From Candidatus Kapaibacterium sp. (lineage in GTDB: Bacteria; Bacteroidota; Ignavibacteria; Kapaibacteriales; UBA2268): a stretch of DNA of 64,000 nucleotides. The stretch is from positions 1,984,001-2,048,000 of the forward strand of contig OY761611.1 in the NCBI GenBank assembly GCA_963664875.1, written 5' to 3'. Positions within the stretch are counted from its first letter, which is position 1; each line of letters opens with the position of its first letter. Position numbers and translations under genes: made by a program. Shown here piece after piece: positions 14,089 through 60,257 of the stretch. The notes under the pieces are model-generated. The model ran no database searches. It was not told where the DNA came from and saw nothing but the letters and a program-made list of their open reading frames with translations.

Positions 14089-14143
14089 GTTTATAGACCG
14101 ATTTATTGAAATAATGTTACTTACAAAAATAGATAAATTGTAT

Positions 14144-14182
14144 AAAAAAAGGCAACATTTCTGAAAAATGTTGCCTCTTTTT
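14144..14182 (-). terminator. Terminator after the 1017-aa T9SS gene
   Basis: aggcaacattt...aaatgttgcct stem with A/T tails. Confidence 0.7.
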
Positions 14183-14194
14183 ATTTGTTAGATC

Positions 14195-17248: not shown

Positions 17249-17264
17249 TCTAACCTCCATTGAG

Positions 17265-18416: not shown

Positions 18417-18417
18417 A

Positions 18418-20307: not shown

Positions 20308-20355
20308 TGTTTTCTCCAATTTATTTATTAATCTCTTTTTCTATTTTTTAAGTAG

Positions 20356-20383
20356 GCAGGTCTTCAGTCTAAAGAAGACCTGC
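20356..20383 (-). promoter_or_regulatory. Intra-cluster stem-loop (terminator or mRNA stabiliser) after the giant gene
   Basis: gcaggtcttc...gaagacctgc perfect 10-bp stem; no immediate U-tract on the - strand. Confidence 0.55.
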
Positions 20384-20396
20384 TATATTCTAAGTG

Positions 20397-29215: not shown

Positions 29216-29250
29216 TATCAACCTTTCTTCTATATTTTTAAAATACTTAG

Positions 29251-29324
29251 CACGCCCGAAGGGATTCGAACCCCCAACCTCTGGAACCGGAATCCAACAC
29301 TCTATCCAGTTGAGCTACGGGCGT
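29251..29324 (-). tRNA. tRNA-Arg (CCG)
   Basis: ACGCCCG/CGGGCGT acceptor stem, TAGCTCAACTGGATAGAG D arm, TTGGA-TTCCGGT-TCCAG anticodon arm, GGTTCGAATCC; CCA not encoded. Confidence 0.96.
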
Positions 29325-36122: not shown

Positions 36123-37070
36123 TTAGAACAACAATAGATAAGAACGAGGGTTTTGATTTGCCTGAGCAAGAGACAAAATTGATGTCTGCTGCAAAAATTG
36201 ATTTTTTACAACATTTAGCTGTTCATTAGCCACATCAGCGTCTTCAAGTCGAGAAATTGCAGAATCATAATTAACAATCTGAGAGCGAATCGCTTCTTCC
36301 TGAGAGTTGATTCTGCCCTGAACACCACCTAAATAAGAAGCCACATTTCTAACGTTTTTCATCGCTAACGAAAGACTATATAAAGTACTTCCAATTTCGT
36401 CACTAGCAAATATGTTCAAATCAGATGCAGTAACATCATTGAGTTTGGACAGATCTAAGCCTGTCACACCTGCGAAGTTCGAAACGTCTAAGCCTGAGCC
36501 TTCATCAACTGCATTCAGATTAAAATTTAGGCTATCAACATTGAGATCTTCGTTATCTGACTGCAAATCAATCCCTAAGGTAATCATATTATTTACGTGG
36601 TCGTAACCGATTACCCAATCAGCTTTGTAATCACCGCTAAAAAGTTGGTAGCCTCCAAAAACAGAAGATTCAACCACCGATTGGATTTGTTGAGATAATC
36701 TGTAAGAGCTTTTTGCCAATGCTACTTTTTCGTCTTTACCTATCGAATCAGCAGATGCCAAAGTAGTAGCTTCTTTTATTTTAGCGAGTAAGCCATTAAT
36801 ATTATCTAAAGTGTCCTGCGAAATGGAAGCAACGTTGCCTGCTTCGCCACTTAGTCTCAAAGCCGCTTTTAATGAGCCATTTCTTGCTTCTAAGGACTTG
36901 GAAGTAATATAAGCAGAGACATCGTCCGCAGCTACATTTATCCTTTTGCCTGTAGAAATCCTGAGCTGGCTGCTCGCAATCTCCTGCGATGATCTAACAT
37001 TGCTGTTATAAGCCTGCTCAGCAGAAATATTGGCACGTATTCTTGCTTCACCCGAAATTGTTGCCGGCAT
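36123..37070 (-). CDS. fliC: Flagellin (short, minimal variable domain)
   Basis: RISTGKRINVAADD N-terminal and LGGVQGRI...SRLEDADVANEQ...LAQANQ C-terminal flagellin motifs. Confidence 0.9.
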   Translation of the reverse strand: MPATISGEARIRANISAEQAYNSNVRSSQEIASSQLRISTGKRINVAADDVSAYITSKSLEARNGSLKAALRLSGEAGNVASISQDTLDNINGLLAKIKEATTLASADSIGKDEKVALAKSSYRLSQQIQSVVESSVFGGYQLFSGDYKADWVIGYDHVNNMITLGIDLQSDNEDLNVDSLNFNLNAVDEGSGLDVSNFAGVTGLDLSKLNDVTASDLNIFASDEIGSTLYSLSLAMKNVRNVASYLGGVQGRINSQEEAIRSQIVNYDSAISRLEDADVANEQLNVVKNQFLQQTSILSLAQANQNPRSYLLLF

Positions 37071-37408: not shown

Positions 37409-39199
37409 ATGAGAAATATAAATGCAATTTTTTTATTCCTTGTCCTAATGCTAAGTATAATTGGGAAAAGCAAGGCAAATAATGATACGTTTTTTGACGA
37501 TTATATGAAACGTAATGGTGAGCTTTATCCTTGGGAAAGAGATGCTACATTTTTGAACAAAGATAGTTTATGGATAGAATTTTACTTAACAAAAGCTGAG
37601 GCATTTATCACTAACGACAATGATTCAGCACTACATTTTTTAAAGATTGCAGAAAAGAAAATACAAAATAAAAACTACACTCGACTTATTCCTGAACTAT
37701 ATTCCAAATATGGCAATTATTACTTCTTTATAGATAAACAGGACACAGCGATTTATTATTTCAAGGCAGCAGCTAAAATGGCAGAAAAAGAAAAAGATAC
37801 ACTAACTGCCGGAATATCTTTCAGTAATTTAGCTCTAATTTACTCTTACCAATCGCAATATGACAAATTTCTTACATCAGCTCAAAATGCTATCATCTAT
37901 AACAATTTGCTCAATAGGCATATTGCAAATATGAAAATATGGACAGCTCTTTCCGATTACTATTCTCATGAAAAAGATACTTTAAAAGCAGAGCATGCTT
38001 CTTATATGGCTCTAAGAGCTGCAGATTTGAGCAAGAATTTTGTATGGCAGCCCTGGGCGAAGAATCAGTATGCCTTATTGCTATTAGATTTTGGGAAAAT
38101 AGAAAAAGCAGATAGTCTTATCTCGGAGCTCTTGCCTATAGCTGACACCATTTACTACAAGAAATTATCGAAAAATATTTATAAAACAAAAGCAGTCATA
38201 CTAAATCTACAAAAAGATGGCAACCGTGCTATACAATTTCTCAATAAAGCAAAAGATGCAGCACCATTTTCATCAACTTTTGATTCTCTCGATTATGAGA
38301 TGTCTTTTGCTGATGCGTACGCAATTATGAATAAGCATCAATTTGCTATAGATATTTATAGAGGAATATTGAGCGTAAAATCAGATGTTTTAGATTTGGA
38401 ACTGAAATTAAAGACTTATGACAAGCTAATCGCCTCGCTACAAGCAACTAACCAATATAAGGAGCTTTCTTATGTATGGGCACGTCGAACAGAAATCGCT
38501 AATGAGTTGCTAAATTCACGAAATATAGAATTGACTAAAAAATACGAAGTTGAACTCAATCTTCAGGATAAAGAACTTCAAACGAAAAAAGCAGAGTTGC
38601 AAGCACAGGAAGCAGAAGAAAAGACGACTTATTTGGCTTTTAGCTCTGTAATCCTTGCCTTTATCGTACTGTCTATAATATTAAGGATGCGTATTGCAAA
38701 AAAACAATCTGCACTGCAATTTCGAAATAATGAGTTGCAAAAAACAATCGAACTCAACGAGCAAAAAAACCTTTTAAAACAAAAGGAAAATGAGCTTTTT
38801 GAGCAAACAAAAGCTCTTGCAGAAAAACAGGAAATTGTAAATCGTCTCGAAGAAGAAATTACAAAAAGCAAATCTCTTAATATGCCAACTTACAGCATTG
38901 AGCAAATTTTAAGTGAAATACAGCAAAATAATATGACTATAGAATCTTTTGATTTGAAATTCAACGAGATCTATCCCGATTTTTATACTCGTTTATATCA
39001 AACATGCTCTGACCTTTCTCAGTCAGAAATAAGGGTTTGTGCTTTGATAAAGATGAATATGAACACTAAAGAAATAGCAAATCTGCTAAATGTATCACCC
39101 TCAACTATCGACAACCACAGATTCCGAGTCCGCAAAAAATTAGAATTGGAAAAAGGCACTAACTTATTTGATGCAATTCAAAATTTAGACAACTCGTAA
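37409..39199 (+). CDS. Membrane-spanning one-component regulator: exported TPR sensor, TM helix, coiled coil, LuxR-type HTH
   Basis: Signal-like N-terminus, TPR helices, TM YLAFSSVILAFIVLSIIL, C-terminal LSQSEIRVCALIKMNMNTKEIANLLNVSPSTIDNHRFRVRKKL. Confidence 0.88.
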   Translation: MRNINAIFLFLVLMLSIIGKSKANNDTFFDDYMKRNGELYPWERDATFLNKDSLWIEFYLTKAEAFITNDNDSALHFLKIAEKKIQNKNYTRLIPELYSKYGNYYFFIDKQDTAIYYFKAAAKMAEKEKDTLTAGISFSNLALIYSYQSQYDKFLTSAQNAIIYNNLLNRHIANMKIWTALSDYYSHEKDTLKAEHASYMALRAADLSKNFVWQPWAKNQYALLLLDFGKIEKADSLISELLPIADTIYYKKLSKNIYKTKAVILNLQKDGNRAIQFLNKAKDAAPFSSTFDSLDYEMSFADAYAIMNKHQFAIDIYRGILSVKSDVLDLELKLKTYDKLIASLQATNQYKELSYVWARRTEIANELLNSRNIELTKKYEVELNLQDKELQTKKAELQAQEAEEKTTYLAFSSVILAFIVLSIILRMRIAKKQSALQFRNNELQKTIELNEQKNLLKQKENELFEQTKALAEKQEIVNRLEEEITKSKSLNMPTYSIEQILSEIQQNNMTIESFDLKFNEIYPDFYTRLYQTCSDLSQSEIRVCALIKMNMNTKEIANLLNVSPSTIDNHRFRVRKKLELEKGTNLFDAIQNLDNS

Positions 39200-39226
39200 A
39201 TATCTTTAAATAAGACACTTAGCCTC

Positions 39227-39248
39227 ATAGGTGAAATATGTGAGATAA
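39227..39248 (+). promoter_or_regulatory. Operator-like motif, copy 1 (ataggtgaaatatgtgagataa)
   Basis: Identical 22-mer upstream of all three IPTL-CTERM genes. Confidence 0.75.
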
Positions 39249-39308
39249 TAAAGTACTTCATAAATACTACTTTACAACTATCAATAACATCAACTATGAG
39301 GTAGTAAT

Positions 39309-40952
39309 ATGATTTTTAAAACTCCTTTTTTTATAGCGGCTATGGTTTTTCTAATGATAGCTTCTACGATTACAAGAGCTGTATCTTGGTACCCAAATCG
39401 AAATATAAATTCATCAAACTGGGCTTATGCGAACAGCCAAGAAGCAGATTTTGATGGAGATGGAGATGTTGATATTTTGGTTAATGGAAGGAAGGGATCG
39501 ACCGGCACACCTTTTTCAACTGTTCTATACGTGAATGATGGAACCGGAAACTTTACAGAAACTTCAATCCCATCTTTTTCTATATACCAATTTAAAGAGA
39601 TCCACATTTTAGATATTGATTCAGATGGTGATATCGATCTTCTGCTCCCATTTTACAATACTACGCTTTCTCGTATTCAGTTTGGCTTGTTCTTAAACAA
39701 CGGAAATGGTCTATCATATACTCAAACACAAGCTATCGACTATATTAATAGGATTGAAGTCGGTGATATTGATGGAGATGGCGATATTGATATTGTAGGT
39801 ATCAATAGCGATACAAAACAAATTGTCAAATTGGTAAATAATGGTGCAAATGCCTTTAGTTCTACTGATATTGAACTTTTAGGTGATGATGTGAATCCGG
39901 TAACAAATCCCGCCCTAATATCAGCTACTTACTACGACATAGAGCTTTTTGATATTAACAATGACGGTGATCTTGACATAGTCTCTGCATATACAAATGC
40001 AGTTGGGCTTCCATCTCAAGCTGGTGTATTACAAGTGTTTGAGAATAATGGCTCAGGTTCATTTACTGAACTATCTAAGATCATAGACACAGAAGCCGCA
40101 TCGGCTAATTTCAAACCAGGGACAGGAATAATGATAGTACCTGCTCATATCAATGGAGATAATTTTAAGGATTTCTTGATATCCGCCCAAGGTGCTCTTT
40201 ATAGTTTTACCAATAATCAAGCTTCAGGTTTTACATCCTCAGGTAGTTCTATTGCCTCGAGTGAGTCTAATAGTTACAATCCTAATTCATACAGAATCGC
40301 TGATTTAGACGATGATGGAGATGATGACATAATAATTTGGGGTGCAGGTACTACCGGCACTGTTATCTTAGGAAGAAACGGAGGCAATTTTAGTTATTCA
40401 TTTGCAACATTCAACAGCGGTAATAAAATTAATGGGCAACCTACAAGTACTTTCCAGGTATGGGCAAGTGGCTCAATTAATGTTGCTGATTTTGACGGAG
40501 ATGGCGAAATAGATATGCATGTGTTTAGTTTATATGATAACAGTGGACCGGGGCTTTATGGTTCAGCATGTCCAACAAACGTTTCCATCTCCGCAGTATC
40601 CAAAATATCAGATACTGAATACGAGATAAGTGCCACTCCCGATGACGGTGCTTGTTCTACGATTTTAGCGAAGGGTATAGTATGGGGAACATCAACAAAT
40701 CCAACTCTCGCATCAAATTCGGGTTCAGTTGCTGCAGGTTCCGGTTCAGCATCATATAGTGCGAACGCTATAAATGTTACAGTAGGTCCGGGCTATTACG
40801 TGAGAGCTTATGTTACTACTTCTATTGGGACATATTATTCTGAGCAGGTTCACTTTGGTGTAGTTCCTACATTGCCTGAATGGGGTCTGATAATCCTCGC
40901 AGGCGGATTTTTAGTAACAGGCGGATGGTTTATGTTTAGAAAGTTTATGTAG
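39309..40952 (+). CDS. FG-GAP/VCBS-repeat surface protein with IPTL-CTERM anchor
   Basis: Signal peptide; repeated D(F/I)DGDGDxD; C-terminal VPTLPEWG + TM + RK. Confidence 0.85.
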   Translation: MIFKTPFFIAAMVFLMIASTITRAVSWYPNRNINSSNWAYANSQEADFDGDGDVDILVNGRKGSTGTPFSTVLYVNDGTGNFTETSIPSFSIYQFKEIHILDIDSDGDIDLLLPFYNTTLSRIQFGLFLNNGNGLSYTQTQAIDYINRIEVGDIDGDGDIDIVGINSDTKQIVKLVNNGANAFSSTDIELLGDDVNPVTNPALISATYYDIELFDINNDGDLDIVSAYTNAVGLPSQAGVLQVFENNGSGSFTELSKIIDTEAASANFKPGTGIMIVPAHINGDNFKDFLISAQGALYSFTNNQASGFTSSGSSIASSESNSYNPNSYRIADLDDDGDDDIIIWGAGTTGTVILGRNGGNFSYSFATFNSGNKINGQPTSTFQVWASGSINVADFDGDGEIDMHVFSLYDNSGPGLYGSACPTNVSISAVSKISDTEYEISATPDDGACSTILAKGIVWGTSTNPTLASNSGSVAAGSGSASYSANAINVTVGPGYYVRAYVTTSIGTYYSEQVHFGVVPTLPEWGLIILAGGFLVTGGWFMFRKFM

Positions 40953-40985
40953 ATTTTAAAAGTTTGAGAATTATTGATTATTGAG

Positions 40986-41019
40986 ATACCGCAGGCATTT
41001 TTGCTTGCGGTATTTTTTT
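40986..41019 (+). terminator. Intrinsic terminator inside repeat A
   Basis: ataccgcaggca-tttt-tgcttgcggtat followed by a T run. Confidence 0.8.
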
Positions 41020-41058
41020 TATTGCTTCTAAATAGTTGTAATATAACTATTTACCCTC

Positions 41059-41080
41059 ATAGGTGAAATATGTGAGATAA
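41059..41080 (+). promoter_or_regulatory. Operator-like motif, copy 2
   Basis: Identical 22-mer. Confidence 0.75.
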
Positions 41081-41142
41081 GATTTTTCTGGTATATCGTT
41101 AGATTTAGCATGGGTTAATCTATACATATACAAGGTTGAGTT

Positions 41143-43038
41143 ATGAAAAAGTATATCATGTTGACTTTAATCATCTTATTCATCAACAGTTCTTTGTTGT
41201 TTTCTCAAGGATTTTCAGTTACTCCAGTATTCTTTGCCTGGGATTCTATTCACGATGAAGCTCCTATAAGCATTGTGTCGGGAGATGATGGAAACGCCGA
41301 TTTAGCTCCTCCATTTACATTTCAATATTTTGGAGAAAATGTTACAAATATTAATGTAACAACAAATGGCTATATCACTTTAACGACAGCCTCGGGAACA
41401 AGGGACCTAAATATTTGTCGTGCAGATTTAGAAGCTTTCGATTTTGCTGTAAGATATGTAGTTAGAGGTGTTAGCCCAAATAGAGTTTTAGTGATAGAGC
41501 ACACAGATTTAGACTATTTTAATAATATCAGCACTACAATGGATTTACAATGGATTTTTTACGAAAACAGTACAATCTTTACATTTGTATATAACCAAGT
41601 TGATTTTGTCAACAATAGTAATCTATCTATACAAAACGGAGTAGGTTCCACCTATTATCTAACTCCTACTTCGGGATGGGGACAACCGACTATTACAGAT
41701 TTCAATATTTTTGGACTAAATTCAACAACTGAATCTTATTTTTATGATGGTTGTGCATATACTTTTACACCAAGCTTAACCGTATCTGCAACAACGGTAG
41801 CTTCTGCAATAACCACCAATAGTGCTTCTTCAGGCGGCAATATATCTAATGGTGGGCTAACCCCTGTAACTGCTCGTGGTGTATGTTGGAACACTAGCGG
41901 AACTCCAACTACCGCTGACAGTAAAACTTTAGATGGCACTGGTACGGGGGTCTTTACAAGTATTCTATCTGGTCTTTCTTCAAATACCCAATATTTTGTC
42001 AGAGCTTATGGTACAAATACGGAAAGTACTGAGTATGGCCCTCAAATATCTTTTTATTCTTTAGCTAATGTTCCTACTGCCCCCACTGTAGATAATGCAA
42101 CTTCTACAACAGTAGATGTTGATGTAAATACTAATTCCAATCCTGCTATAACCACTTATGCTATCCAAGAGACATCCACAGGCAATTATCTGCAATCAAA
42201 TGGAACTCTCTCAGGCGTGGCAGTATGGCAAACAGATGCAATATGGGCTACCAAAACTGTTACCGGACTTTCGCAAGGGACTACATACACATTCCAGGTT
42301 AAAGCAAGAAACGGTAATAATACAGAAACTGTATTTGGAGCTACGAGTTCTATTATGACTTTGGGCGAGCCAATTCTTGACGCCACAACGGCAGCAAGTT
42401 CTATCTCAGAAGGCTCAGCAGTAAGTGGCGGTAATATAAGCAATGACTACGGATTAGGAGTAACTTCCCGAGGCGTCTGCTGGAATACAGGAGGTAATCC
42501 TACCACTGCTGATTCTAAAACTACAGATGGTACCGGAACAGGTGTTTTTATAAGTAATATTACAGGACTACAACCTAACACTACTTACTATGTTAGGGCT
42601 TATGCTACAAGTTCAGGCGGAACCGGGTACGGTGCGCAAATAAGCTTTACTACATTAGCCCTTTCTGTATCAATTACTAATGTGCTTAAAGTTAGTGATA
42701 CACAATATACTTTTACGAGCGACCTAACTAATCCAAATACGATAACAATTTTAGACAAAGGAATCGTTTGGAGTACCTCTCAAAATCCGACAACTACCTC
42801 AAATAGCGGTTCGGTATCTTCGGGAGCAGGGAGTGTACAGTTTACTGACGACGCGACCGGTTTATTGGTCGGACCTGGTTACTATGTTCGTGCTTACATC
42901 ACAACAGCAAACGGAACATTCTATTCTGAGCAGGTTCACTTTGGTGTAGTTCCTACATTGCCTGAATGGGGTTTGATAATCCTTGCCGGCGGATTTTTGG
43001 TAACAGGTGGATGGTTTATGTTTAGAAAGTTTATGTAG
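41143..43038 (+). CDS. Surface protein: nidogen-like domain, FN3-like stalk repeats, IPTL-CTERM anchor
   Basis: Signal peptide; PFTFQYFG...TTNGYITL; duplicated SGGNIS...RGVCW...YxVRAY domain; VPTLPEWG tail. Confidence 0.85.
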   Translation: MKKYIMLTLIILFINSSLLFSQGFSVTPVFFAWDSIHDEAPISIVSGDDGNADLAPPFTFQYFGENVTNINVTTNGYITLTTASGTRDLNICRADLEAFDFAVRYVVRGVSPNRVLVIEHTDLDYFNNISTTMDLQWIFYENSTIFTFVYNQVDFVNNSNLSIQNGVGSTYYLTPTSGWGQPTITDFNIFGLNSTTESYFYDGCAYTFTPSLTVSATTVASAITTNSASSGGNISNGGLTPVTARGVCWNTSGTPTTADSKTLDGTGTGVFTSILSGLSSNTQYFVRAYGTNTESTEYGPQISFYSLANVPTAPTVDNATSTTVDVDVNTNSNPAITTYAIQETSTGNYLQSNGTLSGVAVWQTDAIWATKTVTGLSQGTTYTFQVKARNGNNTETVFGATSSIMTLGEPILDATTAASSISEGSAVSGGNISNDYGLGVTSRGVCWNTGGNPTTADSKTTDGTGTGVFISNITGLQPNTTYYVRAYATSSGGTGYGAQISFTTLALSVSITNVLKVSDTQYTFTSDLTNPNTITILDKGIVWSTSQNPTTTSNSGSVSSGAGSVQFTDDATGLLVGPGYYVRAYITTANGTFYSEQVHFGVVPTLPEWGLIILAGGFLVTGGWFMFRKFM

Positions 43039-43170
43039 ATTTTAAAAGTTTGAGAATTATTGATTATTGAGATACCGCCGGCATTTTTGCTTGCGGTATT
43101 TTTTGTTGCTTCTAAATAGTTGTAATATAATAGCTTACCAATATAGGTGAAATATGTGAGATAAGATTTT
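42922..43170 (+). repeat. ~250-bp direct repeat, copy B (includes terminator 43072-43104 and operator)
   Basis: Near-identical to 40836-41087. Confidence 0.9.
43143..43164 (+). promoter_or_regulatory. Operator-like motif, copy 3
   Basis: Identical 22-mer. Confidence 0.75.
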
Positions 43171-43231
43171 CCCAAAAAATTCGTTGATTAAGAAAGTGTT
43201 CAACTAAACAGCACAATTAAGGTGTATCAAA

Positions 43232-45226
43232 ATGAAACTTTATTTTCTACTTTTTACTCTATTTTTTCTAAGTTTGACTTCGACTCTTCAGTCACAATCT
43301 TGGGATCAACTAATCAAAATTTGTGCCTCAGACAGAGCTGCAAATGCAAGTTTTGGGACTTCGGTTTCAATCGACGGAGATTATGCTATCGTGGGTGTTC
43401 AAGGAGAGGATAGTGGAGGAAATGATGCAGGAGCTGCATACATTTTTAAGAAAAATGCAGGCACATGGACACAAATAAAAAAAATTGTAGCCTCTGATCC
43501 AACTGCTGCAGACAATTTTGGTCGTTCAGTATCTATTTCCGGTGATTATGCAATAGTGGGAGCTCCCTCCAATCAGTTTGATCCAGGAGGCAACAATCCA
43601 CTTAGTAATGCAGGTAGTGCATATATATTTTATAAAGATCAAGGCGGAGTAGATAATTGGGGACAAATTCAAAAAATTGTGGCACTTGACAGAGCACAAG
43701 GCGACAGTTTTGGTTCATCTGTGTCAATTTCAGGAAATTATTTAATTGTGGGTGCATACGCAGAAAGTCATGACGAAGCAGGTAGTAATTTCTTACATGC
43801 TGCCGGCAGTGCATATATTTTCTATAAAACCGGTGTAACCACCTGGGACTCGGGCATTAAAATTGTTGCTTCGGATAGAGTAGCCGATGCGTATTTTGGG
43901 AATTCAGTATCAATATACGGAGATTATGCCATTGTAGGAGCACCTTATGAAGACAAAGACGCAGCCGGCTTAAACAGCGTAAGTCGAGCTGGTGGGGCTT
44001 ACATTTTTTACAGAACCGGTACCAATTCGTGGACATCTCGATATAAAATTGTTGCAACGGACAGAGAGAGTGATGATAATTTTGGTATATCTGTTTCTAT
44101 TTCCGGAAATTATGCTATTGTTGGTGCTCCCGGGGAAGATCCAAGTGCAATCCAAAATGCAGGTAGTGCATACATATTTTATAGAACAGCTACTAATACA
44201 TGGGATTCCGGCACCAAGATTGTAGCACCTGATGCAGGAGGCAGCGATTTGTTTGGCCAAGCAGTAGCAATTTCGGGAAATTTTGCTGCTATCGGAGTCA
44301 GTTATGAAGACGAAAATCTTTTAGGTGGAAATACTTTAAACAATGCCGGAAGCGCATATATTTTCAAAAGGACAGGGACAACAACCTGGGATTCCGGTAC
44401 AAAAGCAATTACTACCGACAGAGCTTCCAATGATTGGTTTGGATACTCAGTGTCGATTTCCGGAAGCAATGTTATTTTAACTGCCCCTTATGATTCTGAA
44501 GATGCTTTAGGTGCCAATACTTTGTCAAGTTCAGGAAGTGCCTACATTTTTGGAGGATCTCCTTTAGTCTCTACTGTTTCAATAAGTAACATTACAAGCT
44601 CAACTGCAAGTTCTGGTGGAAATGTATCCGACGAAGGTTCTGCTGCTGTAATTGCTCGTGGCGTCTGCTTGAATACAGGAGGCAATCCTACTACCGCCGA
44701 TAGTAAAACTACAGATGGAATCGGTACAGGAGTGTTTTCCAGCAACATTACAGGACTTCAGCCCAACACTACTTACTATGTTAGAGCTTATGCCACAAAT
44801 AGTGTAGGGACATCTTACGGCGATCAAATAAGCTTTACTACTTTAGCTCTTTCAGTTTCAATTACTAATGTACTTAAAGTTAGTGATACACAATATACTT
44901 TTACGAGTGATATAAATAATCCCGGTGCAGTAGCAGTCCTCGACAAAGGTATCGTTTGGAGTACCTCTCAAAATCCGACAACTACCTCAAATAGCGGTTC
45001 GCTATCTTCGGGAGCAGGGAGTGTGCAGTTTACTGAAGACGCAACAGGGTTAATCATCGGGCCTGGTTACTATGTTCGTGCTTACATCACCACTCCAAAC
45101 GGAACATTCTATTCTGAGCAGGTTCACTTTGGTGTAGTTCCTACATTGCCTGAATGGGGGCTTATAATCCTTGCCGGCGGATTTTTAGTTACAGGAGGCT
45201 GGTTAATGTTTAGAAAGTTTATGTAG
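43232..45226 (+). CDS. FG-GAP (integrin-alpha-like) beta-propeller surface protein with FN3-like stalk and IPTL-CTERM anchor
   Basis: Seven FGxSVSISGxYAIVGAP...AGSAYIF-type repeats; VPTLPEWG tail. Confidence 0.9.
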   Translation: MKLYFLLFTLFFLSLTSTLQSQSWDQLIKICASDRAANASFGTSVSIDGDYAIVGVQGEDSGGNDAGAAYIFKKNAGTWTQIKKIVASDPTAADNFGRSVSISGDYAIVGAPSNQFDPGGNNPLSNAGSAYIFYKDQGGVDNWGQIQKIVALDRAQGDSFGSSVSISGNYLIVGAYAESHDEAGSNFLHAAGSAYIFYKTGVTTWDSGIKIVASDRVADAYFGNSVSIYGDYAIVGAPYEDKDAAGLNSVSRAGGAYIFYRTGTNSWTSRYKIVATDRESDDNFGISVSISGNYAIVGAPGEDPSAIQNAGSAYIFYRTATNTWDSGTKIVAPDAGGSDLFGQAVAISGNFAAIGVSYEDENLLGGNTLNNAGSAYIFKRTGTTTWDSGTKAITTDRASNDWFGYSVSISGSNVILTAPYDSEDALGANTLSSSGSAYIFGGSPLVSTVSISNITSSTASSGGNVSDEGSAAVIARGVCLNTGGNPTTADSKTTDGIGTGVFSSNITGLQPNTTYYVRAYATNSVGTSYGDQISFTTLALSVSITNVLKVSDTQYTFTSDINNPGAVAVLDKGIVWSTSQNPTTTSNSGSLSSGAGSVQFTEDATGLIIGPGYYVRAYITTPNGTFYSEQVHFGVVPTLPEWGLIILAGGFLVTGGWLMFRKFM

Positions 45227-45256: not shown

Positions 45257-45299
45257 AAATCCGCAATATACTTTTTATTAGTAACATTGCGGATTTTTT
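45257..45299. terminator. Terminator between convergent genes
   Basis: aaatccgcaat...attgcggattt + T run. Confidence 0.7.
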
Positions 45300-45326: not shown

Positions 45327-46895
45327 CTATTCTTTACTGCCTTTGTCTTTTTTGAAATGGCTGAGAATGTCAACTCCGGTTGCATTTTCAAGCATTTCTG
45401 AAAGAGATACTACTGAGCCGGGCAACTGATTGACAAGTTTTTGAATTTGATTGCCGCTGCTGTCGCCGCCGTTGTCAACCATTGTGATTTTGTCAATAGT
45501 AATACCCTGAATAGTTGAAGTAAGTTTTTCAATGATTTCAGGCAACATTTTAAGCATGAGGATTTTATCCCCGCTACCGTCTGCTGTCTGATATGTTTCA
45601 ATCATACGTTTTAAGACTTCAATTTCAGCATTTCCGCTTTCGATGATTGAAGCAGCCTGACCTTTAGCATCAAGTTCTGCAGCTTCTTTACGAGCTTTTG
45701 CAGGTTCGATAACGTCAGCCATCAATCTTCTTTGTTGCAATTCGATTCTTTCTTTTTCGAGCTCTTGTTCGAATTTGGCTTTCGCCCTTTCGCCGGCAAC
45801 TCTTGCTTCCTGCTCGCGAACTATTGCTTCTTTTTCGAGTTCAGCTTTTTTCAATCTTAAATTGTTATTTTCAATTTCTACATTTTGATCTGCGAGTGCT
45901 CGATTTACTTTGATAATCTTATCCGCTTCGATCTGAGCAGATTCGATATTGCGTTTAGCTTCTGCCTGAGCCTGCTCGTAGCGAGCTTTTGCCTGAGCTT
46001 CGGCTTCGCGTGCTTCAGCTTCTTTCAATGCTTTGGAAATAAGCACATTCTGCTCAGCTTCCACTTTTGCCTTTTCGGCTCTTTCTTTTGCTCTTGCCTC
46101 TGCCTCCTGAGTGGCAGCTGCTTTGTTGGCTTCAGAGATAGCAATTTGCTGGTCAGTTTCGATTCTCGCCTGTTCTATATTTTGGCGGGCAAGTGCTTTT
46201 GCTTTTTCAGCTCTTTCGAGAGCGGTAGCTTCTGCTTCCTGAGCTTCAGCATTTTTTTCAGCTTCAGCCTTTTTAGCTCTTGCAATAACTTCAGCAGTCT
46301 TGCCACGGCCAATAGAATTTAGATAGCCGGATTCGTCGCTAATATTAGTAATTTTTAGAGTATCGAGCTGAAGACCGAGTTTTTGCAAATCTATATCTGC
46401 TTCTTCCATCAGCGTATCAGCAAATTTCAATCTGTCTTCGTTTACCTCTTCAGGTGTAAGAGCTGCCAATACACCACGCAAGTTACCTTCAAGAGTTTCT
46501 TTTGCTATAGCGTGGATATCTGATTCGCTCATTGTCAAAAATCTTTCAACTGCATTGCCAAATTCAGGCTCTTTAGAGCAGATTTTAGTATTGGCAATAG
46601 CATCAATTATTAGAGGGATACCGCCTTTTGAATATGCATTGCTGACAGAAAGCTCGATTGGAATAGTTTCCAAGGACATACGAGATGCTTTTTCCAAAAA
46701 CGGAATACGTAAAGCTCTGCCACCTTTGATAATTCGGTATCCAACTAAGCTGCCGTCCGGCAAAGTCCTTTTCCTACCGGACAAGATTATCACCTCGTTG
46801 GGCTGAGAAATTAAGAGCAACCTACTGATCGCAAAAAATACAACTACAAGTGCAAATGCACCTAGTGCAACTATGGTAAGAACAAACTCACCCAT
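45327..46895 (-). CDS. Flotillin / SPFH-domain protein
   Basis: N-terminal TM, PNEVIILSG, ETLEGNLRGVLA.LTPEEVNEDR, long AEA-rich coiled coil. Confidence 0.92.
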   Translation of the reverse strand: MGEFVLTIVALGAFALVVVFFAISRLLLISQPNEVIILSGRKRTLPDGSLVGYRIIKGGRALRIPFLEKASRMSLETIPIELSVSNAYSKGGIPLIIDAIANTKICSKEPEFGNAVERFLTMSESDIHAIAKETLEGNLRGVLAALTPEEVNEDRLKFADTLMEEADIDLQKLGLQLDTLKITNISDESGYLNSIGRGKTAEVIARAKKAEAEKNAEAQEAEATALERAEKAKALARQNIEQARIETDQQIAISEANKAAATQEAEARAKERAEKAKVEAEQNVLISKALKEAEAREAEAQAKARYEQAQAEAKRNIESAQIEADKIIKVNRALADQNVEIENNNLRLKKAELEKEAIVREQEARVAGERAKAKFEQELEKERIELQQRRLMADVIEPAKARKEAAELDAKGQAASIIESGNAEIEVLKRMIETYQTADGSGDKILMLKMLPEIIEKLTSTIQGITIDKITMVDNGGDSSGNQIQKLVNQLPGSVVSLSEMLENATGVDILSHFKKDKGSKE

Positions 46896-46906
46896 TGATA
46901 AATCTC

Positions 46907-47548
46907 CTAAATTTGTTGTTGACTGACTATGAAATAAATACCGTTGCTATAATCGATTATAAAAACTTCCTCTCCCCTGTCATATGAGTCTGATTCGGAA
47001 GTATCAGATACTTTTACCATGAGTTCATGGATTTCGTTATTTGATTTGACAATAATTTTCCCAATTTTGTCTTTCTTTGCAGGTATGGTTACTTTGCCGC
47101 TTCTGCCGATAAAATTGCTGCTATTCAGGGCTTCGCCACTCTCAGAATCTTTGAGATAGCTCATCAGCTTGTGCCCCGCAGCCCAGGACAAAGTTCCAAT
47201 CCCTAAGGCAGATGCTAATGTTACTATGAAAGGCATAGCCATCAAAGTCAAAATAGTACCTGTAAGTCCATAAAAAGTTGAGAAGTAAATCACATTCCTG
47301 AAACTAAGAAATTTCACGGCATCAGTCGGATGAATTATATCTTTCGATATTTCTGAATGGGACATATCAATATGATCCACAGAAGCATCTGCAGTCAAAT
47401 CAAAATCCGAGTGTGTGTCTAAAGAATGTAAGTCTGCGTGGCCGCTGTCCAAAGCGTCCGTTCCGTCGATATCTCCGCCTCCGGAAAGCAAAGATACTCC
47501 CAGCAAAATGCCCCCAAAAAGAAGACAAGCCAGATAAAAGATAAGCAT
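46907..47548 (-). CDS. NfeD-like / YqiJ-like flotillin partner
   Basis: TM, Asp/His-rich loop, two more TMs, C-terminal OB-fold (IGRSGKVTIP); directly upstream of flotillin. Confidence 0.8.
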   Translation of the reverse strand: MLIFYLACLLFGGILLGVSLLSGGGDIDGTDALDSGHADLHSLDTHSDFDLTADASVDHIDMSHSEISKDIIHPTDAVKFLSFRNVIYFSTFYGLTGTILTLMAMPFIVTLASALGIGTLSWAAGHKLMSYLKDSESGEALNSSNFIGRSGKVTIPAKKDKIGKIIVKSNNEIHELMVKVSDTSESDSYDRGEEVFIIDYSNGIYFIVSQQQI

Positions 47549-48875: not shown

Positions 48876-51326
48876 CTATTCTTTATCTTCTTTTTTTCTG
48901 CCTCTGAAATGGAGGAAGATGCCACCAAGAAGTGCAAGTATGGTCAGACCATTTGTTGCCATACTTATAGTTTTGCCGGTTTCGTACGAGTCGGAGTGGT
49001 ATTTGAATTCCACTTTGTGCTGACCCGCAGGTACTACAATAGATCGGAAAGCAAAGTTAGTTTTATAGATTTCTGTTTCTTTGCCATCTATATATGCTTT
49101 CCACGCAACGGGATAGTAAATTTCAGATAAAAGCAGAAGGTTGTTACCTGTTGCATTTACATTTAGTTCAATGAGTTCGTTTTCGTATTTAGTAACTTCA
49201 GCTTTTGCTGATTCGCCCGCAGGGTCGATATTTAGACCTTTGTCTTCTTCCATGTATGCAACCTGCTTCGGATCGAAAGATCCTGTTTTTAGTTTTTCTA
49301 AGATTGCTTTAGCGTCTGCTATTTCTACAGAATTGACAAACTCAGCACGTTTCAGCATATTCGGATTTTGGAATACATAAGCACCTGATTGTTGCGACTG
49401 CATCACAGGAGGCAAGCCTACGTTCTGACCTGCAATAATATATTTCACATTAAGAAGATTCCAAAGGAATGGATTTGTTACATAAGAAGTTGAAGCTCTG
49501 TCTGCATTGTCGAGCATATCCTGATATACTCTTAGTTTTGCTGAGTGGTAGCCACCAACATTTTGTAGCCCGAAATAAGCAGGAATATTAGCCTGACGAG
49601 TAAAATCAGTAATACGGAATAAATCTTTGTCTTGTTTTAAAAATGCTTCGATATCACTTTCCTTGAAGTATTCCTTGCTCATGTCATATTTAGATACTTC
49701 CATTGGACGGTAAGCAATTCGCCACATATCAAAAACTGAAAGCACGACAAGCACTACCACGAGTCCTGCATATTTAAGTTTATTAGCACGGAAAGCCCAG
49801 AAAAGCCCCCCGGCAACAGCAAGAATAGCTACATTGATAAACCAGTCGCTTATCATTATACTCCATAATTCTTTTTGCAGAGGCATGTGCTGTAGCTTTT
49901 CGCCAACTGAGGCGATGTAGTCATCTTTAAATGCTGCAGCCCAGATAGCTCCAAGCAAAGCAAACCCACCAACTCCATAGAAGAAAAATTTAAGATATTT
50001 GCTAACTTTTTCTTCGTTGCTGATAAGTGAATTGATGCCGTAACCTGCAAGTATCGGGAAAGTAAAGTGCATCATAGCCAAAGACATTGAAGGAGCACGA
50101 AACTTATTGAACATTGGCACATAGTAGTAAAAGAAGTCAAAAAGAATCGGCAAATTATCGCCGAATGATAACAGCAATCCTATCATTGCAATAGTCATCA
50201 TTGCCTGGACAAAAATATCTTTTCTGTTATATATGAACCCTACAATAGCCAGAGCAAAAACAATAATACCCATATAAGGAGGGGAATCTTCTATTTCTTT
50301 TTGTCCCCAATAAGTAACAATTTTATCCGGGATACCCTGCTGAGTCGGCAAGCGAAGAGTGTTGTCAGTTTTGCCGAAACCGTAGTAACTTGGCACTGCA
50401 AAAGTCAAACATTCAGAAGGTGTGTATGAAAACATTGTTGCATATTCATAGTCATGCCCACCGTTTTCAGTTACATGTGCATCTTGTTTGACAAGAGGAG
50501 CAGACCCGCGAGTGGAATAAGGCATATATTCCTGTGTGCTGAAAAATCTATCTGAAGACATCAGATAGGACAAACCACCTGCCAATGCCAAAAGTCCAGC
50601 CACATAAACTACATTCAGTGCTTTATCTTTTCTGATAAGACGAGAAACGAACTCAAATATCAGATATATACCAAAAGACAAGATACCGTAAAAAATCATC
50701 TGATAGTGAGCACCTTCGAGCATGATATGTACCACTACTATCAGCAGAGCAGCATGCAGCAGTGTGATTTTCTCACGGAGCCGTTCCATCAGCATAAATA
50801 TATAAGGGAACATAGCTATCACCATTGGTTTGGTGTTGTGCCCTATCATTATCCAAGTAATAACATAAGTAGAAAACACTGCTGCAAATGCAGTAATAAA
50901 TGAAGCAAGTCTATCCTGCTTTTTACTCCTCATAAGCAGATACATACCAACAGCATACACTGCATAGAAAGAAGCTACGCGAGCGGCATCGCTGGAGAAT
51001 ATATTACCCACAAACTCAGTAAGAGCGAAGAAAAGATGCGGTATAAGGTCATAAGCCCTTGAGCCGGTAGTAAGCAAAGAAGCAAAACTTGGCATGCCAC
51101 TAAAAATATATGGAATCCATTGCGGGAATTCCCCTTTAGAATTTGCTTTTTCGAGAAAGGGTTTGAAACTTTCGGATGCAACGTTGTCAGAAGCGTTGAA
51201 ACCACCGGACATTATTGCATTGCCGAAAAAGATATAAATCAGCAGCACCAGTAGCCCTGCAAAAAAGACATCCTGGTACTTTTCAGGAATGAAGAACTTC
51301 CTGTCATTCGGGTTAAAATTGCTCAT
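48876..51326 (-). CDS. YfhO-family GT-C membrane glycosyltransferase
   Basis: PQWIPYIFSGMP, NKFRAP, GGYHSAK, LLNVKYI, SEIYYP.AWKAYIDGK. Confidence 0.88.
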   Translation of the reverse strand: MSNFNPNDRKFFIPEKYQDVFFAGLLVLLIYIFFGNAIMSGGFNASDNVASESFKPFLEKANSKGEFPQWIPYIFSGMPSFASLLTTGSRAYDLIPHLFFALTEFVGNIFSSDAARVASFYAVYAVGMYLLMRSKKQDRLASFITAFAAVFSTYVITWIMIGHNTKPMVIAMFPYIFMLMERLREKITLLHAALLIVVVHIMLEGAHYQMIFYGILSFGIYLIFEFVSRLIRKDKALNVVYVAGLLALAGGLSYLMSSDRFFSTQEYMPYSTRGSAPLVKQDAHVTENGGHDYEYATMFSYTPSECLTFAVPSYYGFGKTDNTLRLPTQQGIPDKIVTYWGQKEIEDSPPYMGIIVFALAIVGFIYNRKDIFVQAMMTIAMIGLLLSFGDNLPILFDFFYYYVPMFNKFRAPSMSLAMMHFTFPILAGYGINSLISNEEKVSKYLKFFFYGVGGFALLGAIWAAAFKDDYIASVGEKLQHMPLQKELWSIMISDWFINVAILAVAGGLFWAFRANKLKYAGLVVVLVVLSVFDMWRIAYRPMEVSKYDMSKEYFKESDIEAFLKQDKDLFRITDFTRQANIPAYFGLQNVGGYHSAKLRVYQDMLDNADRASTSYVTNPFLWNLLNVKYIIAGQNVGLPPVMQSQQSGAYVFQNPNMLKRAEFVNSVEIADAKAILEKLKTGSFDPKQVAYMEEDKGLNIDPAGESAKAEVTKYENELIELNVNATGNNLLLLSEIYYPVAWKAYIDGKETEIYKTNFAFRSIVVPAGQHKVEFKYHSDSYETGKTISMATNGLTILALLGGIFLHFRGRKKEDKE

Positions 51327-51436
51327 AGCTATTCCCAATATTACTATTTAGAAACTATTATTTTTCCAATTTTTCAAGTTAACAATAAAAAAGCAAAAAT
51401 CTAACTCTAAATGTGCTATTGCAGGTGCAAATAGAT

Positions 51437-54095: not shown

Positions 54096-54119
54096 TTCAA
54101 TTTGGGTTAGTCCTTTAGT
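54096..54119. repeat. 24-bp direct repeat, copy 1
   Basis: ttcaatttgggttagtcctttagt; 23/24 identical to 54623-54646. Confidence 0.8.
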
Positions 54120-54627
54120 TTGGTCGTACAGTGAATACTATGAAGAGAATCATTATGATCAATATGGCTGAAGTCATTATGCTATTTACTTTTGCATTAA
54201 TTGCCATAGTGTTTCTAAGTGTTTCGCCTCTTCTTTTACCGAGTCTGTAATAGAAATAGTAATCATAAACAACAGAAAAGAAAAAGTAGAAGAAGGTAGT
54301 AAACACCCAAATTATAATTTTGTCTAACACACTATCTTCTATAAACTCACTCCTAACCAATAGAAAGCTACTTAATACTCCGGCAGAGACAAAACTTAGT
54401 ATGAAGGAAAATGATTTGTACAAAGTAAATGACCAATACTCCTTATTTGATAAATCTTTCCAAAATATAGCAATAACTACCGAATTTATCATTGATAGAA
54501 AAATACCAACGAAAAACAATATTAGTAACCAGAAAGTGAAGAAAGCAGGACCAAAAGAGTGAGCCCACATCACCTGGGGTAGAAGCAGTGCAAAGATTAC
54601 AAGTAATATCTTAGATTTTAAGTTCAA
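54115..54627 (-). CDS. Hypothetical membrane protein (170 aa)
   Basis: TTG start after AAAGGA RBS; several hydrophobic segments. Confidence 0.65.
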   Translation of the reverse strand: MNLKSKILLVIFALLLPQVMWAHSFGPAFFTFWLLILFFVGIFLSMINSVVIAIFWKDLSNKEYWSFTLYKSFSFILSFVSAGVLSSFLLVRSEFIEDSVLDKIIIWVFTTFFYFFFSVVYDYYFYYRLGKRRGETLRNTMAINAKVNSIMTSAILIIMILFIVFTVRPN

Positions 54628-54646: not shown

Positions 54647-54879
54647 GCTTTTTTATTTCCGTACTTCTGATCTAAGTGCATAAAGAAATATCCTACTGCA
54701 TTGCCGAGGGCAAATTTTAGAAGTAGAAAGAGCATATCTATGCCAAGGTAGGGTTTTACTTCATCTGTACCCAAGATTGCCCACATAAAAATCAGGTAGG
54801 CAGTTGCTATCAGAGTTGTCTCTAAAATAAAAAACACCGCCTTTGGGAGCGGTGTCTTATCAGATTTTCTAAGAATCAC
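54634..54879 (-). CDS. Small hypothetical membrane protein
   Basis: GTG start overlapping the upstream TGA (GTGA) with GGAG RBS; two TM segments. Confidence 0.55.
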   Translation of the reverse strand: MILRKSDKTPLPKAVFFILETTLIATAYLIFMWAILGTDEVKPYLGIDMLFLLLKFALGNAVGYFFMHLDQKYGNKKALKD

Positions 54880-55493
54880 GCCGTAGCTCCCTTCCGTATA
54901 AAAATGCCGTCGAATGTTTCCCAAATTTTTTCAAATACACCATACATAAACACCCAGCCAATCAGCGAGCATATTGTGTATCCGAAATATCCTTTAAAAT
55001 ATACAATTTTAGGGATTAGTCCCACAGGTGAAAACTGCAAAAGATAAATGTTCCAATCCGTGCCTAAGCTGATAAGGACAAACAGCAAAAATGCTGAGTA
55101 AAAACTGTACTTATCGAACTTGGTAAGATTGAGGTTTTCCGCTTCTTCTCTGTATTCAAAGTTGGTAACTGCCCAATTTGAGATGCGCCTCATGCGGTAA
55201 TAAAGTGCATAAAGACAAAAAGACATAAACGCAACTGTTCCGGAGGTTGATGACACACCCGCAGAATTGCCCATTATCACACCTGAAGAAACATAGCCGG
55301 CACCAATGGCAAGCACAAAATACTGCATATTTCGCAGTATAAATCTGAGCTTTGCCTGATTCATGGCATTTTTCAACATGAACCACGCCGGAATATATAC
55401 CGTCAGATAGTAGAAGGCAAGCAGAAAAAGAAATGTAAAGCCCAAAAAGCCTACATAATAGAAAACACTTTTAATGAGTAACAAAATGTCCAT
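54876..55493 (-). CDS. Hypothetical membrane protein (205 aa)
   Basis: Multiple hydrophobic segments. Confidence 0.6.
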   Translation of the reverse strand: MDILLLIKSVFYYVGFLGFTFLFLLAFYYLTVYIPAWFMLKNAMNQAKLRFILRNMQYFVLAIGAGYVSSGVIMGNSAGVSSTSGTVAFMSFCLYALYYRMRRISNWAVTNFEYREEAENLNLTKFDKYSFYSAFLLFVLISLGTDWNIYLLQFSPVGLIPKIVYFKGYFGYTICSLIGWVFMYGVFEKIWETFDGIFIRKGATA

Positions 55494-58784: not shown

Positions 58785-60257
58785 TTAAACTGCTTTATAT
58801 ATATAAGCTGATTTGTTTTTATTATGTTTAGGATTCAATTTGTAAAAAACCCAATCCAACAAACTAGGGCTTATTTCGGTTTCTGTAGCTAATTGTATCC
58901 CAAAATCTAATTCTACTTGTTTCACACGCTCTTCCAACTTATCGGCACCGTAAAAGATGTAATAATTTGGTTTTTCGTAAGCATTTGTAACTATGTCTGC
59001 TTTGATTTTATCTGCTTTATTACCTTCAAAAAGTTCGAATACCGGCACTTGTTTGTTTAAGTAGAAAGTAGGTTGTTTTATGCCACCCATGTCACCTGTT
59101 TCGACAACAACTCCTGCAACATCTGACTTCTGCGAAAGATAGTAAAGCGATTCTACTCTGGTCTTTTTACTATAAGTGAAAGTAAATGCTACAAGTATAA
59201 TAGTGTTTGCAATCCAGAACCAGCCCCACATAGCAGACAAAGTTTTTCGTTTATTCGCCCAAAATGTTGATTTCGCAACAAATGCCTCCCAGCCAGTGAT
59301 TCCAAGAATTATAATAAACGGGATGGCAGGCAAAATAAATCTCTCCTGTTTGTTCGGAAAGTAAGAATGGAAGGCAAAAAACAAAAGTACAGGCAAATAA
59401 ATAATGATATTTTCTTTGTAGTTTTTCAGCCATCCGAAGATTAGAAATCCGCTAATTGGTGGTATCAGCAAGCCAAAAAGCAATAACAGATATTGATACC
59501 AAGGTCCGGAAGTATAGTCAGTTCCATGCCCTGCGTTGTACAAAAAGTACTCCAAAGGTGCAGCAAAAGGATAGCCCCAAGCAAGGTAATCTACAATGCC
59601 CTGAGTGAGCGAAACTGAGACAACAAAACCGGATGTAATTAGTAAGGCATTGCTAAATTGTTTCCTGAAAAGGAATACAAGCCCGACTCCACCCAACATT
59701 AGCATTGTGTGGTATCTGAAAATAAATGACAATCCAAACAGGACACCAGCCCAAAAAATATTTTTCCCTTTGTCGTGCTTTACTACAAGATACATAGCCC
59801 AAATCAATGGAGGGATAGTTACCATCTCTATTAGGTTTCTGACACTCATAAACGGGAATATCCCAAAAAGAGCCAAAACCAGCCCCACTTTCTTCGCTGT
59901 TTCTTTATTGCTGATGTGTAGAGCAATCAGATAACCAAAATACACTATCAGCAAGGAATAAAATGCATGAGCAATTCTGACTATATACATTTTTGTTTGA
60001 GGATCATCTATACCAACAGAATTCAGCCCCAAAAAGAGATAATAATGCAAGGAAGGATAAATAATACTGTGCCCATGCGGCTCAGTCCTACTTTCCCAAT
60101 ATGAATAATCAGCAATAATATCATAGGGTTGCTGGATAGGCCCAAAATGATCATCGTGCATACCGTAACCCTTAGCAAAAAATGCTGCTAAAAGTCTTAC
60201 AAGTAATGCAATTATTAAGATTGTACGCAAAGGCTGAGTTTCAAAATATTTTTTCAT
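58785..60257 (-). CDS. GT-C membrane glycosyltransferase (Alg9/GT22-like mannosyltransferase)
   Basis: Early HDDHF loop, multi-TM, PNKQERFILP motif. Confidence 0.75.
   Translation of the reverse strand: MKKYFETQPLRTILIIALLVRLLAAFFAKGYGMHDDHFGPIQQPYDIIADYSYWESRTEPHGHSIIYPSLHYYLFLGLNSVGIDDPQTKMYIVRIAHAFYSLLIVYFGYLIALHISNKETAKKVGLVLALFGIFPFMSVRNLIEMVTIPPLIWAMYLVVKHDKGKNIFWAGVLFGLSFIFRYHTMLMLGGVGLVFLFRKQFSNALLITSGFVVSVSLTQGIVDYLAWGYPFAAPLEYFLYNAGHGTDYTSGPWYQYLLLLFGLLIPPISGFLIFGWLKNYKENIIIYLPVLLFFAFHSYFPNKQERFILPAIPFIIILGITGWEAFVAKSTFWANKRKTLSAMWGWFWIANTIILVAFTFTYSKKTRVESLYYLSQKSDVAGVVVETGDMGGIKQPTFYLNKQVPVFELFEGNKADKIKADIVTNAYEKPNYYIFYGADKLEERVKQVELDFGIQLATETEISPSLLDWVFYKLNPKHNKNKSAYIYKAV

Follow-up and report, generated by a model that had tools for sequence, protein, structure and literature searches.

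A tandem array of three putative IPTL-CTERM surface proteins with unrelated heads and a common stalk and tail in Candidatus Kapaibacterium

Exosortase-type sorting is widespread, and most of the described examples come from Proteobacteria and cyanobacteria. To our knowledge, little has been reported on the effect that this sorting has on its substrates. One family of signals, IPTL-CTERM, is described mainly from Proteobacteria and has the motif [IV]PTLxxWG, a wording also used in an earlier note on the DNA described here. This DNA is a 64,000-nucleotide stretch of a Candidatus Kapaibacterium sp. genome (contig OY761611.1), the whole of which is called the window below; its positions 37409-45226 hold a regulator gene and three tandem genes whose predicted products have unrelated N-terminal heads and end in a common stalk domain and an IPTL-CTERM-class tail. 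Kapaibacterium is placed in the Fibrobacteres-Chlorobi-Bacteroidetes (FCB) group in the NCBI taxonomy. According to passages of PMC3237569, a tripartite pattern of motif, transmembrane (TM) helix and basic residues, together with a signal-peptide rule, defines LPXTG, PEP-CTERM and related signals.

The three proteins can be aligned with one another only over their final ~125 residues, which comprise the stalk and the tail. The tail is HFGVVPTLPEWGLIILAGGFLVTGGW(F/L)MFRKFM, and the final 33 residues are the same in genes 1-3 save for one F/L position. VPTLPEWG comes first, followed by a LIILAGGFLVTGGW(F/L)MF helix and then by RKFM and the stop codon; in other words, an [IV]PTLxxWG motif is followed directly by a TM helix, with basic residues at the extreme C-terminus, as in IPTL-CTERM proteins. 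Exactly three such tails were found in a six-frame scan of the window. The NCBIfam model TIGR04174 (IPTL_CTERM) gives 20.9, 20.5 and 22.5 bits for genes 1, 2 and 3 against a cutoff of 20.5, i.e., a threshold-level pass, and an annotation pipeline based on TIGR04174 would already name these tails. IPTL-CTERM tails typically occur on several paralogs per genome, and this is the case here as well, with the caveat that the paralogs also have the stalk in common.

A search with the stalk-tail module returned 51 homologous proteins, 26 of which have the tail. Two of the homologs (P0024 and P0027) are encoded on the window's own 3,827,814-bp contig, and so the genome has at least five tail genes. A scan of species-representative genomes gave 15 loci (L001-L015), each of which was taken with 10 kb on each side of the tail genes. 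Thirteen of them, referred to here as Kapaibacterium-type loci, are from four metagenome-assembled genomes (MAGs): two Candidatus Kapaibacterium sp., one Chlorobiota bacterium and one 'uncultured bacterium'. The two loci outside this lineage are from a Planctomycetota MAG (L014) and a Methylophilus genome (L015), and both of them pair the identical VPTLPEWG motif, on unrelated proteins, with a short exosortase. In Methylophilus, a subtilase with VPTLPEWG and a helix (TIGR04174, 23.8 bits) directly follows an exosortase-family gene (L015:6799-7476; TIGR04178, 41.2 bits against a cutoff of 23), the product of which is closest to XrtM and XrtH. In the Planctomycetota MAG, a VPTLPEWG-tailed protein (TIGR04174, 23.6 bits) is the divergent neighbor of an XrtH-like gene (L014:8196-8717; XrtH, 84.1 bits against a cutoff of 86; TIGR04178, 51.8 bits), and the open reading frame (ORF) that comes next resembles the XrtH-associated membrane protein weakly, with a score below the cutoff. 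The exosortase family to which these enzymes belong has invariant Cys, Asn, Arg and His residues and 1437 representatives at E <= 0.001. Because the identical motif adjoins XrtH/XrtM-like exosortases in these two loci, the interpretation of the tail as a sorting signal is well grounded, as far as sequence comparison goes. Furthermore, the 26 tails hardly differ in G-x-x-PTLPEWG, in a GGW near the helix end and in a final [RK][KR], which are all essentially invariant, and the rest of the helix is variable; the invariance of the motif across genomes points to selection.

The features of the array are as follows, all of them on the forward strand.

37409-39199, forward: regulator gene, 596 amino acids (aa), with an N-terminal hydrophobic segment, a tetratricopeptide repeat (TPR) region, a TM segment near residue 405 and a C-terminal LuxR/GerE helix-turn-helix (HTH)
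39227-39248, forward: upstream element copy 1, core TAGGTGAAATATGTGAGAT, within a 52-nt repeat at 39197-39248 (repeat family D8)
39309-40952, forward: gene 1, 547 aa, with a signal peptide (hydropathy), an FG-GAP_3 (VCBS-like) head, the stalk and the IPTL-CTERM tail
~40560-40850, forward: gene 1 stalk (FN3-like)
40851-40949, forward: gene 1 tail
40983-41016, forward: terminator-like hairpin and U-tract 3' of gene 1, 15 pairs, fold -23 kcal/mol, z = -6.8
41059-41080, forward: upstream element copy 2, exact 22-mer
41143-43038, forward: gene 2, 631 aa, with a signal peptide (hydropathy), a ~200-aa head, Ig-like repeats and fn3, the stalk and the tail
~42646-42936, forward: gene 2 stalk (FN3-like)
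42937-43035, forward: gene 2 tail
43069-43102, forward: terminator-like hairpin and U-tract 3' of gene 2, fold -18.9 kcal/mol, z = -4.3
43143-43164, forward: upstream element copy 3, exact 22-mer
43232-45226, forward: gene 3, 664 aa, with a signal peptide (hydropathy), seven FG-GAP_2 repeats (propeller-like), one Ig-like repeat, the stalk and the tail
44834-45124, forward: gene 3 stalk (FN3-like)
45125-45223, forward: gene 3 tail
45257-45296, forward: terminator-like hairpin and U-tract 3' of gene 3, inverted repeat I5, fold -17.5 kcal/mol, z = -6.2

Each of the three proteins has an N-terminal hydrophobic segment by hydropathy, as do the full-length relatives. The Pfam family FG-GAP_3 matches the head of gene 1 with 96.6 bits over six stretches, and FG-GAP_2 matches that of gene 3 with 321.8 bits over seven stretches. 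Gene 2 has an fn3 match of 37.7 bits (Pfam) and repeats that resemble the BT0360 N-terminal Ig-like domain (NCBIfam). Binding or adhesion is the probable function of the heads. In the earlier note, that of gene 2 had been called nidogen-like; however, residues 22-215 match no Pfam family at E <= 10, including NIDO (PF06119), and the lead from the atlas is weak (score 0.90, with NIDO on 12% of the members of one cluster). The NIDO identity was rejected because of the missing Pfam match. Apart from this label, the array is confirmed as the note had described it: the ORFs are in tandem on one strand, with VCBS/FG-GAP (gene 1), FN3 (gene 2) and seven FG-GAP stretches (gene 3) in unrelated heads, and they share a stalk and a tail that passes as IPTL-CTERM.

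To characterize the stalk, the C-terminal 130 residues of gene 3 were modeled with AlphaFold2 (mean pLDDT 84.8). The model consists of a beta-sandwich at residues 7-99 and a helix at residues 107-129, with a lower-confidence linker between them that contains VPTLPEW. Foldseek comparison of the stalk model with the PDB gave seven matches at E <= 0.001 (TMq 0.42-0.62), with FN3 domains at the top and Bacteroides DUF3823 proteins also among them. The beta-sandwich and the FN3 matches suggest, therefore, that the constant module is one FN3-like domain plus the sorting tail.

The genes also resemble each other in their flanking regions. An exact 22-mer, ATAGGTGAAATATGTGAGATAA, has three copies (at 39227, 41059 and 43143), one 5' of each gene, and none is expected from shuffled sequence. 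Its core is a 7-2-7 direct repeat, GTGAAAT-AT-GTGAGAT. The same arrangement is found in L001, which has two full-length orthologs of the regulator (57% and 47% identity) interleaved with tail genes; after each ortholog come first the core element, which differs from the 22-mer at three and four positions in the two cases, and then a tail gene. Over the five aligned sites (three in the window and two in L001), the core TAGGTGAwwTwTGTGAGAT is invariant and the flanks have diverged. This pattern makes a good comparative case for a functional cis-element linked to the TPR/TM/LuxR regulator, and the repeat is likely the putative binding site of the adjacent regulator. The -7 box of Bacteroidota is TAnnTTTG. 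A T-n3-TT pattern ~21 nt 3' of the core is invariant in the alignment of the sites, and we take it to resemble this box; if so, the repeat would abut the -33 region, which is the place expected for an activator site. In L002 and L010, there are matches to the element with five mismatches, but no tail gene follows them and we consider them chance occurrences. The possibility that the element acts as an RNA structure was dismissed (fold z = -1.1). The array has no match to a known RNA family, the only Rfam match in the window being the gene for tRNA-Arg(CCG) at 29250-29324 on the reverse strand; no further RNA gene was detected in the 64 kb.

Each gene is followed by a hairpin with a U-tract. 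The hairpin of gene 2 is a near copy of that of gene 1, with one stem mismatch, and the sequence of the gene 3 hairpin is unrelated to both. A simple terminator scan reported only the gene 1 hairpin. The region between the regulator stop codon and gene 1 contains no terminator-like fold (z = -1.1).

The regulator itself matches TPR_12 (31 bits, cutoff 30.1) and, at its C-terminus, the GerE/LuxR HTH (30.1 bits, cutoff 23.5) in Pfam. Its hydropathy peaks are at residues 1 and 405, which puts a membrane span between the two domains; the TPR region would be periplasmic and the GerE HTH cytoplasmic. Assignment to the BT3442 family was rejected (24 bits against a cutoff of 940 in NCBIfam). The claims that each gene is a unit of its own and that the array lies downstream of a transmembrane TPR-LuxR regulator hold, the first by the 22-mer and the hairpin with U-tract that flank every gene. 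The note had also proposed one-component control. The linkage to the regulator is borne out by the synteny and the element in L001, but it is not general: an extracytoplasmic function (ECF) sigma factor together with a protein that has a type IX secretion system (T9SS) tail is found 5' of the tail genes in L002, L003 and L004, and a TetR in L005. No obvious regulator was seen near the tail genes of the remaining Kapaibacterium-type loci. In the three loci with the ECF sigma factor (L002:4949-7283, L003:2594-4925 and L004:2378-4862), its gene overlaps the start of the gene for the T9SS-tailed protein (590-641 aa), and the pair lies directly 5' of the IPTL-tailed genes. It may be that the two proteins work together in the manner of a sigma factor and its anti-sigma factor, by way of the other secretion route.

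The heads and the stalk-tail modules display discordant patterns of relatedness. For example, the closest relatives of the gene 3 head are FG-GAP_2 heads from other genomes (44-55%), and its stalk-tail is nearest to those of gene 2 (89.6%) and P0003 (81.6%), both of which have unrelated heads. Likewise, the identity between P0024 and P0027 is 58% for the head and 95% for the stalk-tail. Head and stalk-tail thus have different histories, and in this respect the modularity of the 'modular expandable repertoire' that had been proposed is upheld. Within the array, a DNA comparison of genes 1 and 2 gives 52% identity for the stalks, with a third-position identity of 0.30, and 95% identity for the tails (33 codons), with a third-position identity of 0.88; the non-coding DNA downstream stays nearly identical past the terminator and into the promoter element that follows. 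Repeats at the 3' ends of the array are up to 300 nt long, at 80-89% identity. Because the tail and the DNA downstream of it are nearly identical and the stalk is not, a unit of '3' end, terminator, promoter element' has been copied or converted recently, and the uniformity of the tail within the array is, on its own, no evidence of selection.

The Kapaibacterium-type loci have 18 tail-bearing ORFs in arrays of one to three, with two or three tail genes in L001, L002, L004 and L007. Their heads include an SBBP propeller, FG-GAP types, fn3 arrays and 'choice-of-anchor D'; in the last case (L006), the stalk-tail module is fused to this domain (159.9 bits). Two loci, L011:9836-10294 and L012:9836-10294, have a 152-aa mini-protein with little more than an N-terminal segment, a stalk-like region and a VPTLPEWG tail (TIGR04174, 20.7 bits), and with a weak sub-cutoff match to 'midcut-by-XrtH'. 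An 806-aa paralog at L003:5119-7539 loses its frame inside the stalk and has no tail; it is either a pseudogene or a sequencing error in the MAG.

Taken together, we favor, with a probability of roughly 60%, the reading that the three genes encode Sec-exported two-module surface or envelope proteins whose IPTL tail is cut by an XrtH-like exosortase and whose expression is controlled by the adjacent regulator. The direct observations behind it are the architecture, the family match, the conserved element with its synteny, the incongruence of the modules and the adjacency of tail and exosortase in other phyla. Each exported protein would consist of a variable head and a constant C-terminal module, i.e., the FN3-like beta-sandwich stalk and the IPTL-CTERM-class signal. 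After export, the tail would keep the protein in the inner membrane with the RK toward the cytoplasm. In the next step, an exosortase of the XrtH-like kind, with its gene in another part of the genome, would recognize VPTLPEWG, cut off the helix and hand the protein on toward the cell surface. Each gene would have its own promoter region, with the 7-2-7 repeat, and its own terminator; the repeat would be bound by the TPR/TM/LuxR regulator, the TPR domain of which would sense a periplasmic signal. Gene conversion would keep the stalk-tail-terminator-promoter unit uniform within arrays, and heads and anchors would evolve separately. We infer the cleavage, the final location, the presence of the enzyme in this genome and the binding by the regulator.

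Several results weigh against this interpretation. The TIGR04174 scores are right at the cutoff (20.5-22.5 against 20.5). In the Kapaibacterium-type lineage, the tail is seen only behind the same stalk, and so its conservation is not independent of the stalk. The uniformity of the anchor within the array is due in part to recent gene conversion, which also qualifies the constant anchor of the earlier note, although the same tail is indeed present in all three proteins. The TPR-LuxR regulator lies beside tail genes in only two of 14 places (the window and L001). Finally, neither the window nor the 10 kb around the tail genes at the 13 Kapaibacterium-type loci yielded an exosortase. Database searches, limited by a word index, did not extend to this lineage: one with the Methylophilus exosortase gave seven close relatives, and one in which 22 low-GC exosortases were aligned gave 36 matches among 8000 scored candidates, with none on the relevant contigs in either case.

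The enzyme was sought in other ways as well. No exosortase is present among the window's ORFs of >=110 aa in NCBIfam and Pfam scans, nor at E <= 1 in a relaxed rescan of six unassigned ORFs, including those at 54115-54627 and 54876-55493. Library scans of the related loci covered 97 of 97 ORFs of L001-L007 and 48 and then 14 selected ORFs, mainly from the 128 ORFs of L008-L015. In addition, a local profile hidden Markov model (HMM) of 189 exosortases was run with all filters off (hmmsearch --max) against the 945 stop-to-stop ORFs that the window and the 15 loci contain (369 kb). It matched only two proteins, the enzymes of L015 (E = 6e-55) and of L014 (E = 7e-35), and no other ORF had an E-value better than 0.49. 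The earlier statement that the window has no exosortase gene is borne out by these scans. The two ORFs named above, both on the reverse strand, encode small multi-pass membrane proteins of 170 and 205 aa; short exosortases are of similar size, but the two proteins have no family match at E <= 1 and do not match the exosortase HMM. A literature search found no publication that links the Kapaibacterium/Ignavibacteria lineage with exosortases (for the broad search, among the matches listed). In the rhombosortase system, as described in passages of PMC3237569, the enzyme adjoins its target in genomes with a single target and is far from the targets otherwise. By this analogy, and because there are at least five targets here, the lack of an adjacent gene is no strong argument against an enzyme.

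The missing exosortase in the window and at the 13 related loci would also be expected if the tail were a permanent membrane anchor, with a stop-transfer helix that tethers the proteins to the inner membrane, facing the periplasm, and with no sortase. The constant fusion of the tail to one stalk in this lineage and the contribution of gene conversion to its uniformity would agree with this. However, a simple anchor needs no conserved extracytoplasmic motif, and in several genomes, with 26 tails in all, PTLPEWG never changes, unlike the helix; moreover, the same motif stands on unrelated proteins beside exosortases in two other phyla, and propeller and adhesin-like heads would fit better outside of the cell. 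We regard a permanent anchor as improbable, although it is the rival to which we give the most weight. Quite unlikely, in our opinion, is that a non-exosortase enzyme, such as a rhomboid-type or other intramembrane protease, has been re-paired with the IPTL-like tail in this lineage. The failure to find an exosortase near any Kapaibacterium-type locus would allow for it, and L004 encodes a rhomboid-family protease (1460-2089, reverse strand) ~3 kb 5' of its two tail genes; its rhombosortase score, however, is 43.2 bits against a cutoff of 84, such a gene is present in only one of the 13 loci, and the motif is identical to that of the exosortase-adjacent tails. The search for an enzyme, moreover, reached no further than 10 kb to either side.

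A variant T9SS C-terminal domain (CTD) exported by the organism's own T9SS would be another way to explain the constant module, given that the stalk is a beta-sandwich, as are T9SS CTDs, and that four proteins encoded at 13324-28397 on the reverse strand of the window have T9SS type A tails (TIGR04183, 29.4-37.8 bits). But TIGR04183 does not match genes 1-3 at E <= 0.01, and their products end in a TM helix and basic residues, an ending that T9SS CTDs are not known to have; this explanation is disfavored and has very little to recommend it. The same four proteins, and the relatives in the FCB group, bear out the description of the organism as a T9SS-bearing member of that group. Least probable of all is an assembly artefact, in which the array would be a collapsed or mis-joined repeat. 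The 3' repeats could mislead assemblers, but the copies have diverged, the heads are unrelated, every ORF is intact, the contig is 3.83 Mb long and independent MAGs have similar arrays of two or three genes; we consider such an artefact very unlikely.

A more elaborate possibility, which we offer as speculation and regard as doubtful, is that Kapaibacterium-type bacteria have a dedicated 'display cassette' made of a promoter element, a slot for the head, the FN3 stalk, the IPTL tail and a terminator, in which the homogenized flanks would permit heads to be exchanged or added and VPTLPEWG would be read by a non-canonical sortase alongside the T9SS. The enzyme in that case would not be a canonical neighboring XrtH and may be a divergent or different sortase.

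The interpretation in the earlier note is thus supported in part. The significance of the reading as exosortase-sorted surface proteins would be that an IPTL-CTERM signal is present in an FCB-group lineage that also has a T9SS, and two routes of surface display would coexist in one cell. With its three substrates, a single conserved cis-element and a single candidate regulator, the array is a compact and testable set in a lineage known mainly from MAGs, and it provides a clear case of a sorting module that evolves in concert while the functional heads diverge.

The rest of the window contains several other genes of interest. A lone flagellin gene (36123-37070, reverse strand; Flagellin_N and Flagellin_C) lies directly 5' of the regulator on the opposite strand, and no other flagellar genes were seen in general library scans of the window. 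Just 3' of the array, at 45327-47548 on the reverse strand, are a flotillin/SPFH gene (FloT, 171 bits, below cutoff) and then a gene for an unassigned 213-aa membrane protein, which may, from its position, be an NfeD-like partner. The run of T9SS cargo genes includes a giant protein of 2666 aa (20397-28397) with Ycf48-like propeller repeats and proteins of 1021 and 633 aa. Several membrane proteins of the kind seen in envelope glycosylation are scattered through the window (7728-8966, 12287-13306, 48876-51338 and 58785-60257), with likenesses to PMT_2, ArnC/PgfS-like family 2 glycosyltransferases (GT2), YfhO and Alg9-like GT22 enzymes, a hint of protein or lipid glycosylation.

As compared with the known systems, the array differs from PEP-CTERM/exosortase A (EpsH) in its PTLxxWG motif, which replaces the PEP motif, in the short enzymes (~170-230 aa) found beside VPTLPEWG, as opposed to the long eight-helix XrtA, and in that no exopolysaccharide locus is evident beside it. 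The tripartite signal, the many targets per enzyme and the suffix-like use on unrelated proteins are likenesses to that system, as described in passages of PMC3237569. The GlyGly-CTERM/rhombosortase system likewise has a tripartite tail and a many-to-one pairing, according to the same passages of PMC3237569, but its motif is another one and its enzyme family is unrelated, and near one related locus there is only the weak, sub-cutoff rhomboid. The T9SS type A cargo of the same window is similar to the products of genes 1-3 in that the proteins are large, modular and secreted, have heads made of repeats or propellers and carry a sorting module at the C-terminus; genes 1-3, however, have no TIGR04183 match and end in a membrane helix instead of a soluble beta-sandwich CTD. 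The S-layer protein mela_00855 of Methylomirabilis lanthanidiphila has a predicted IPTL-CTERM domain and shows, as far as the relevant part of PMC8671808 describes it, that IPTL-tailed proteins can become the outermost layer; it is a single small S-layer protein from another phylum, likened here by description only, whereas the array encodes modular proteins with a shared stalk. The closest system is IPTL-CTERM/XrtH (TIGR04174/TIGR04177). Unlike its described members, the array tails always follow one conserved FN3-like stalk, searches around all 14 Kapaibacterium-type places turned up no enzyme, and the host is an FCB-group bacterium with a T9SS. In common with it, the array has VPTLPEWG, a TM helix and a basic C-terminus on signal-peptide proteins, several paralogs per genome and, in L014 and L015, the identical motif beside XrtH/XrtM-like enzymes.

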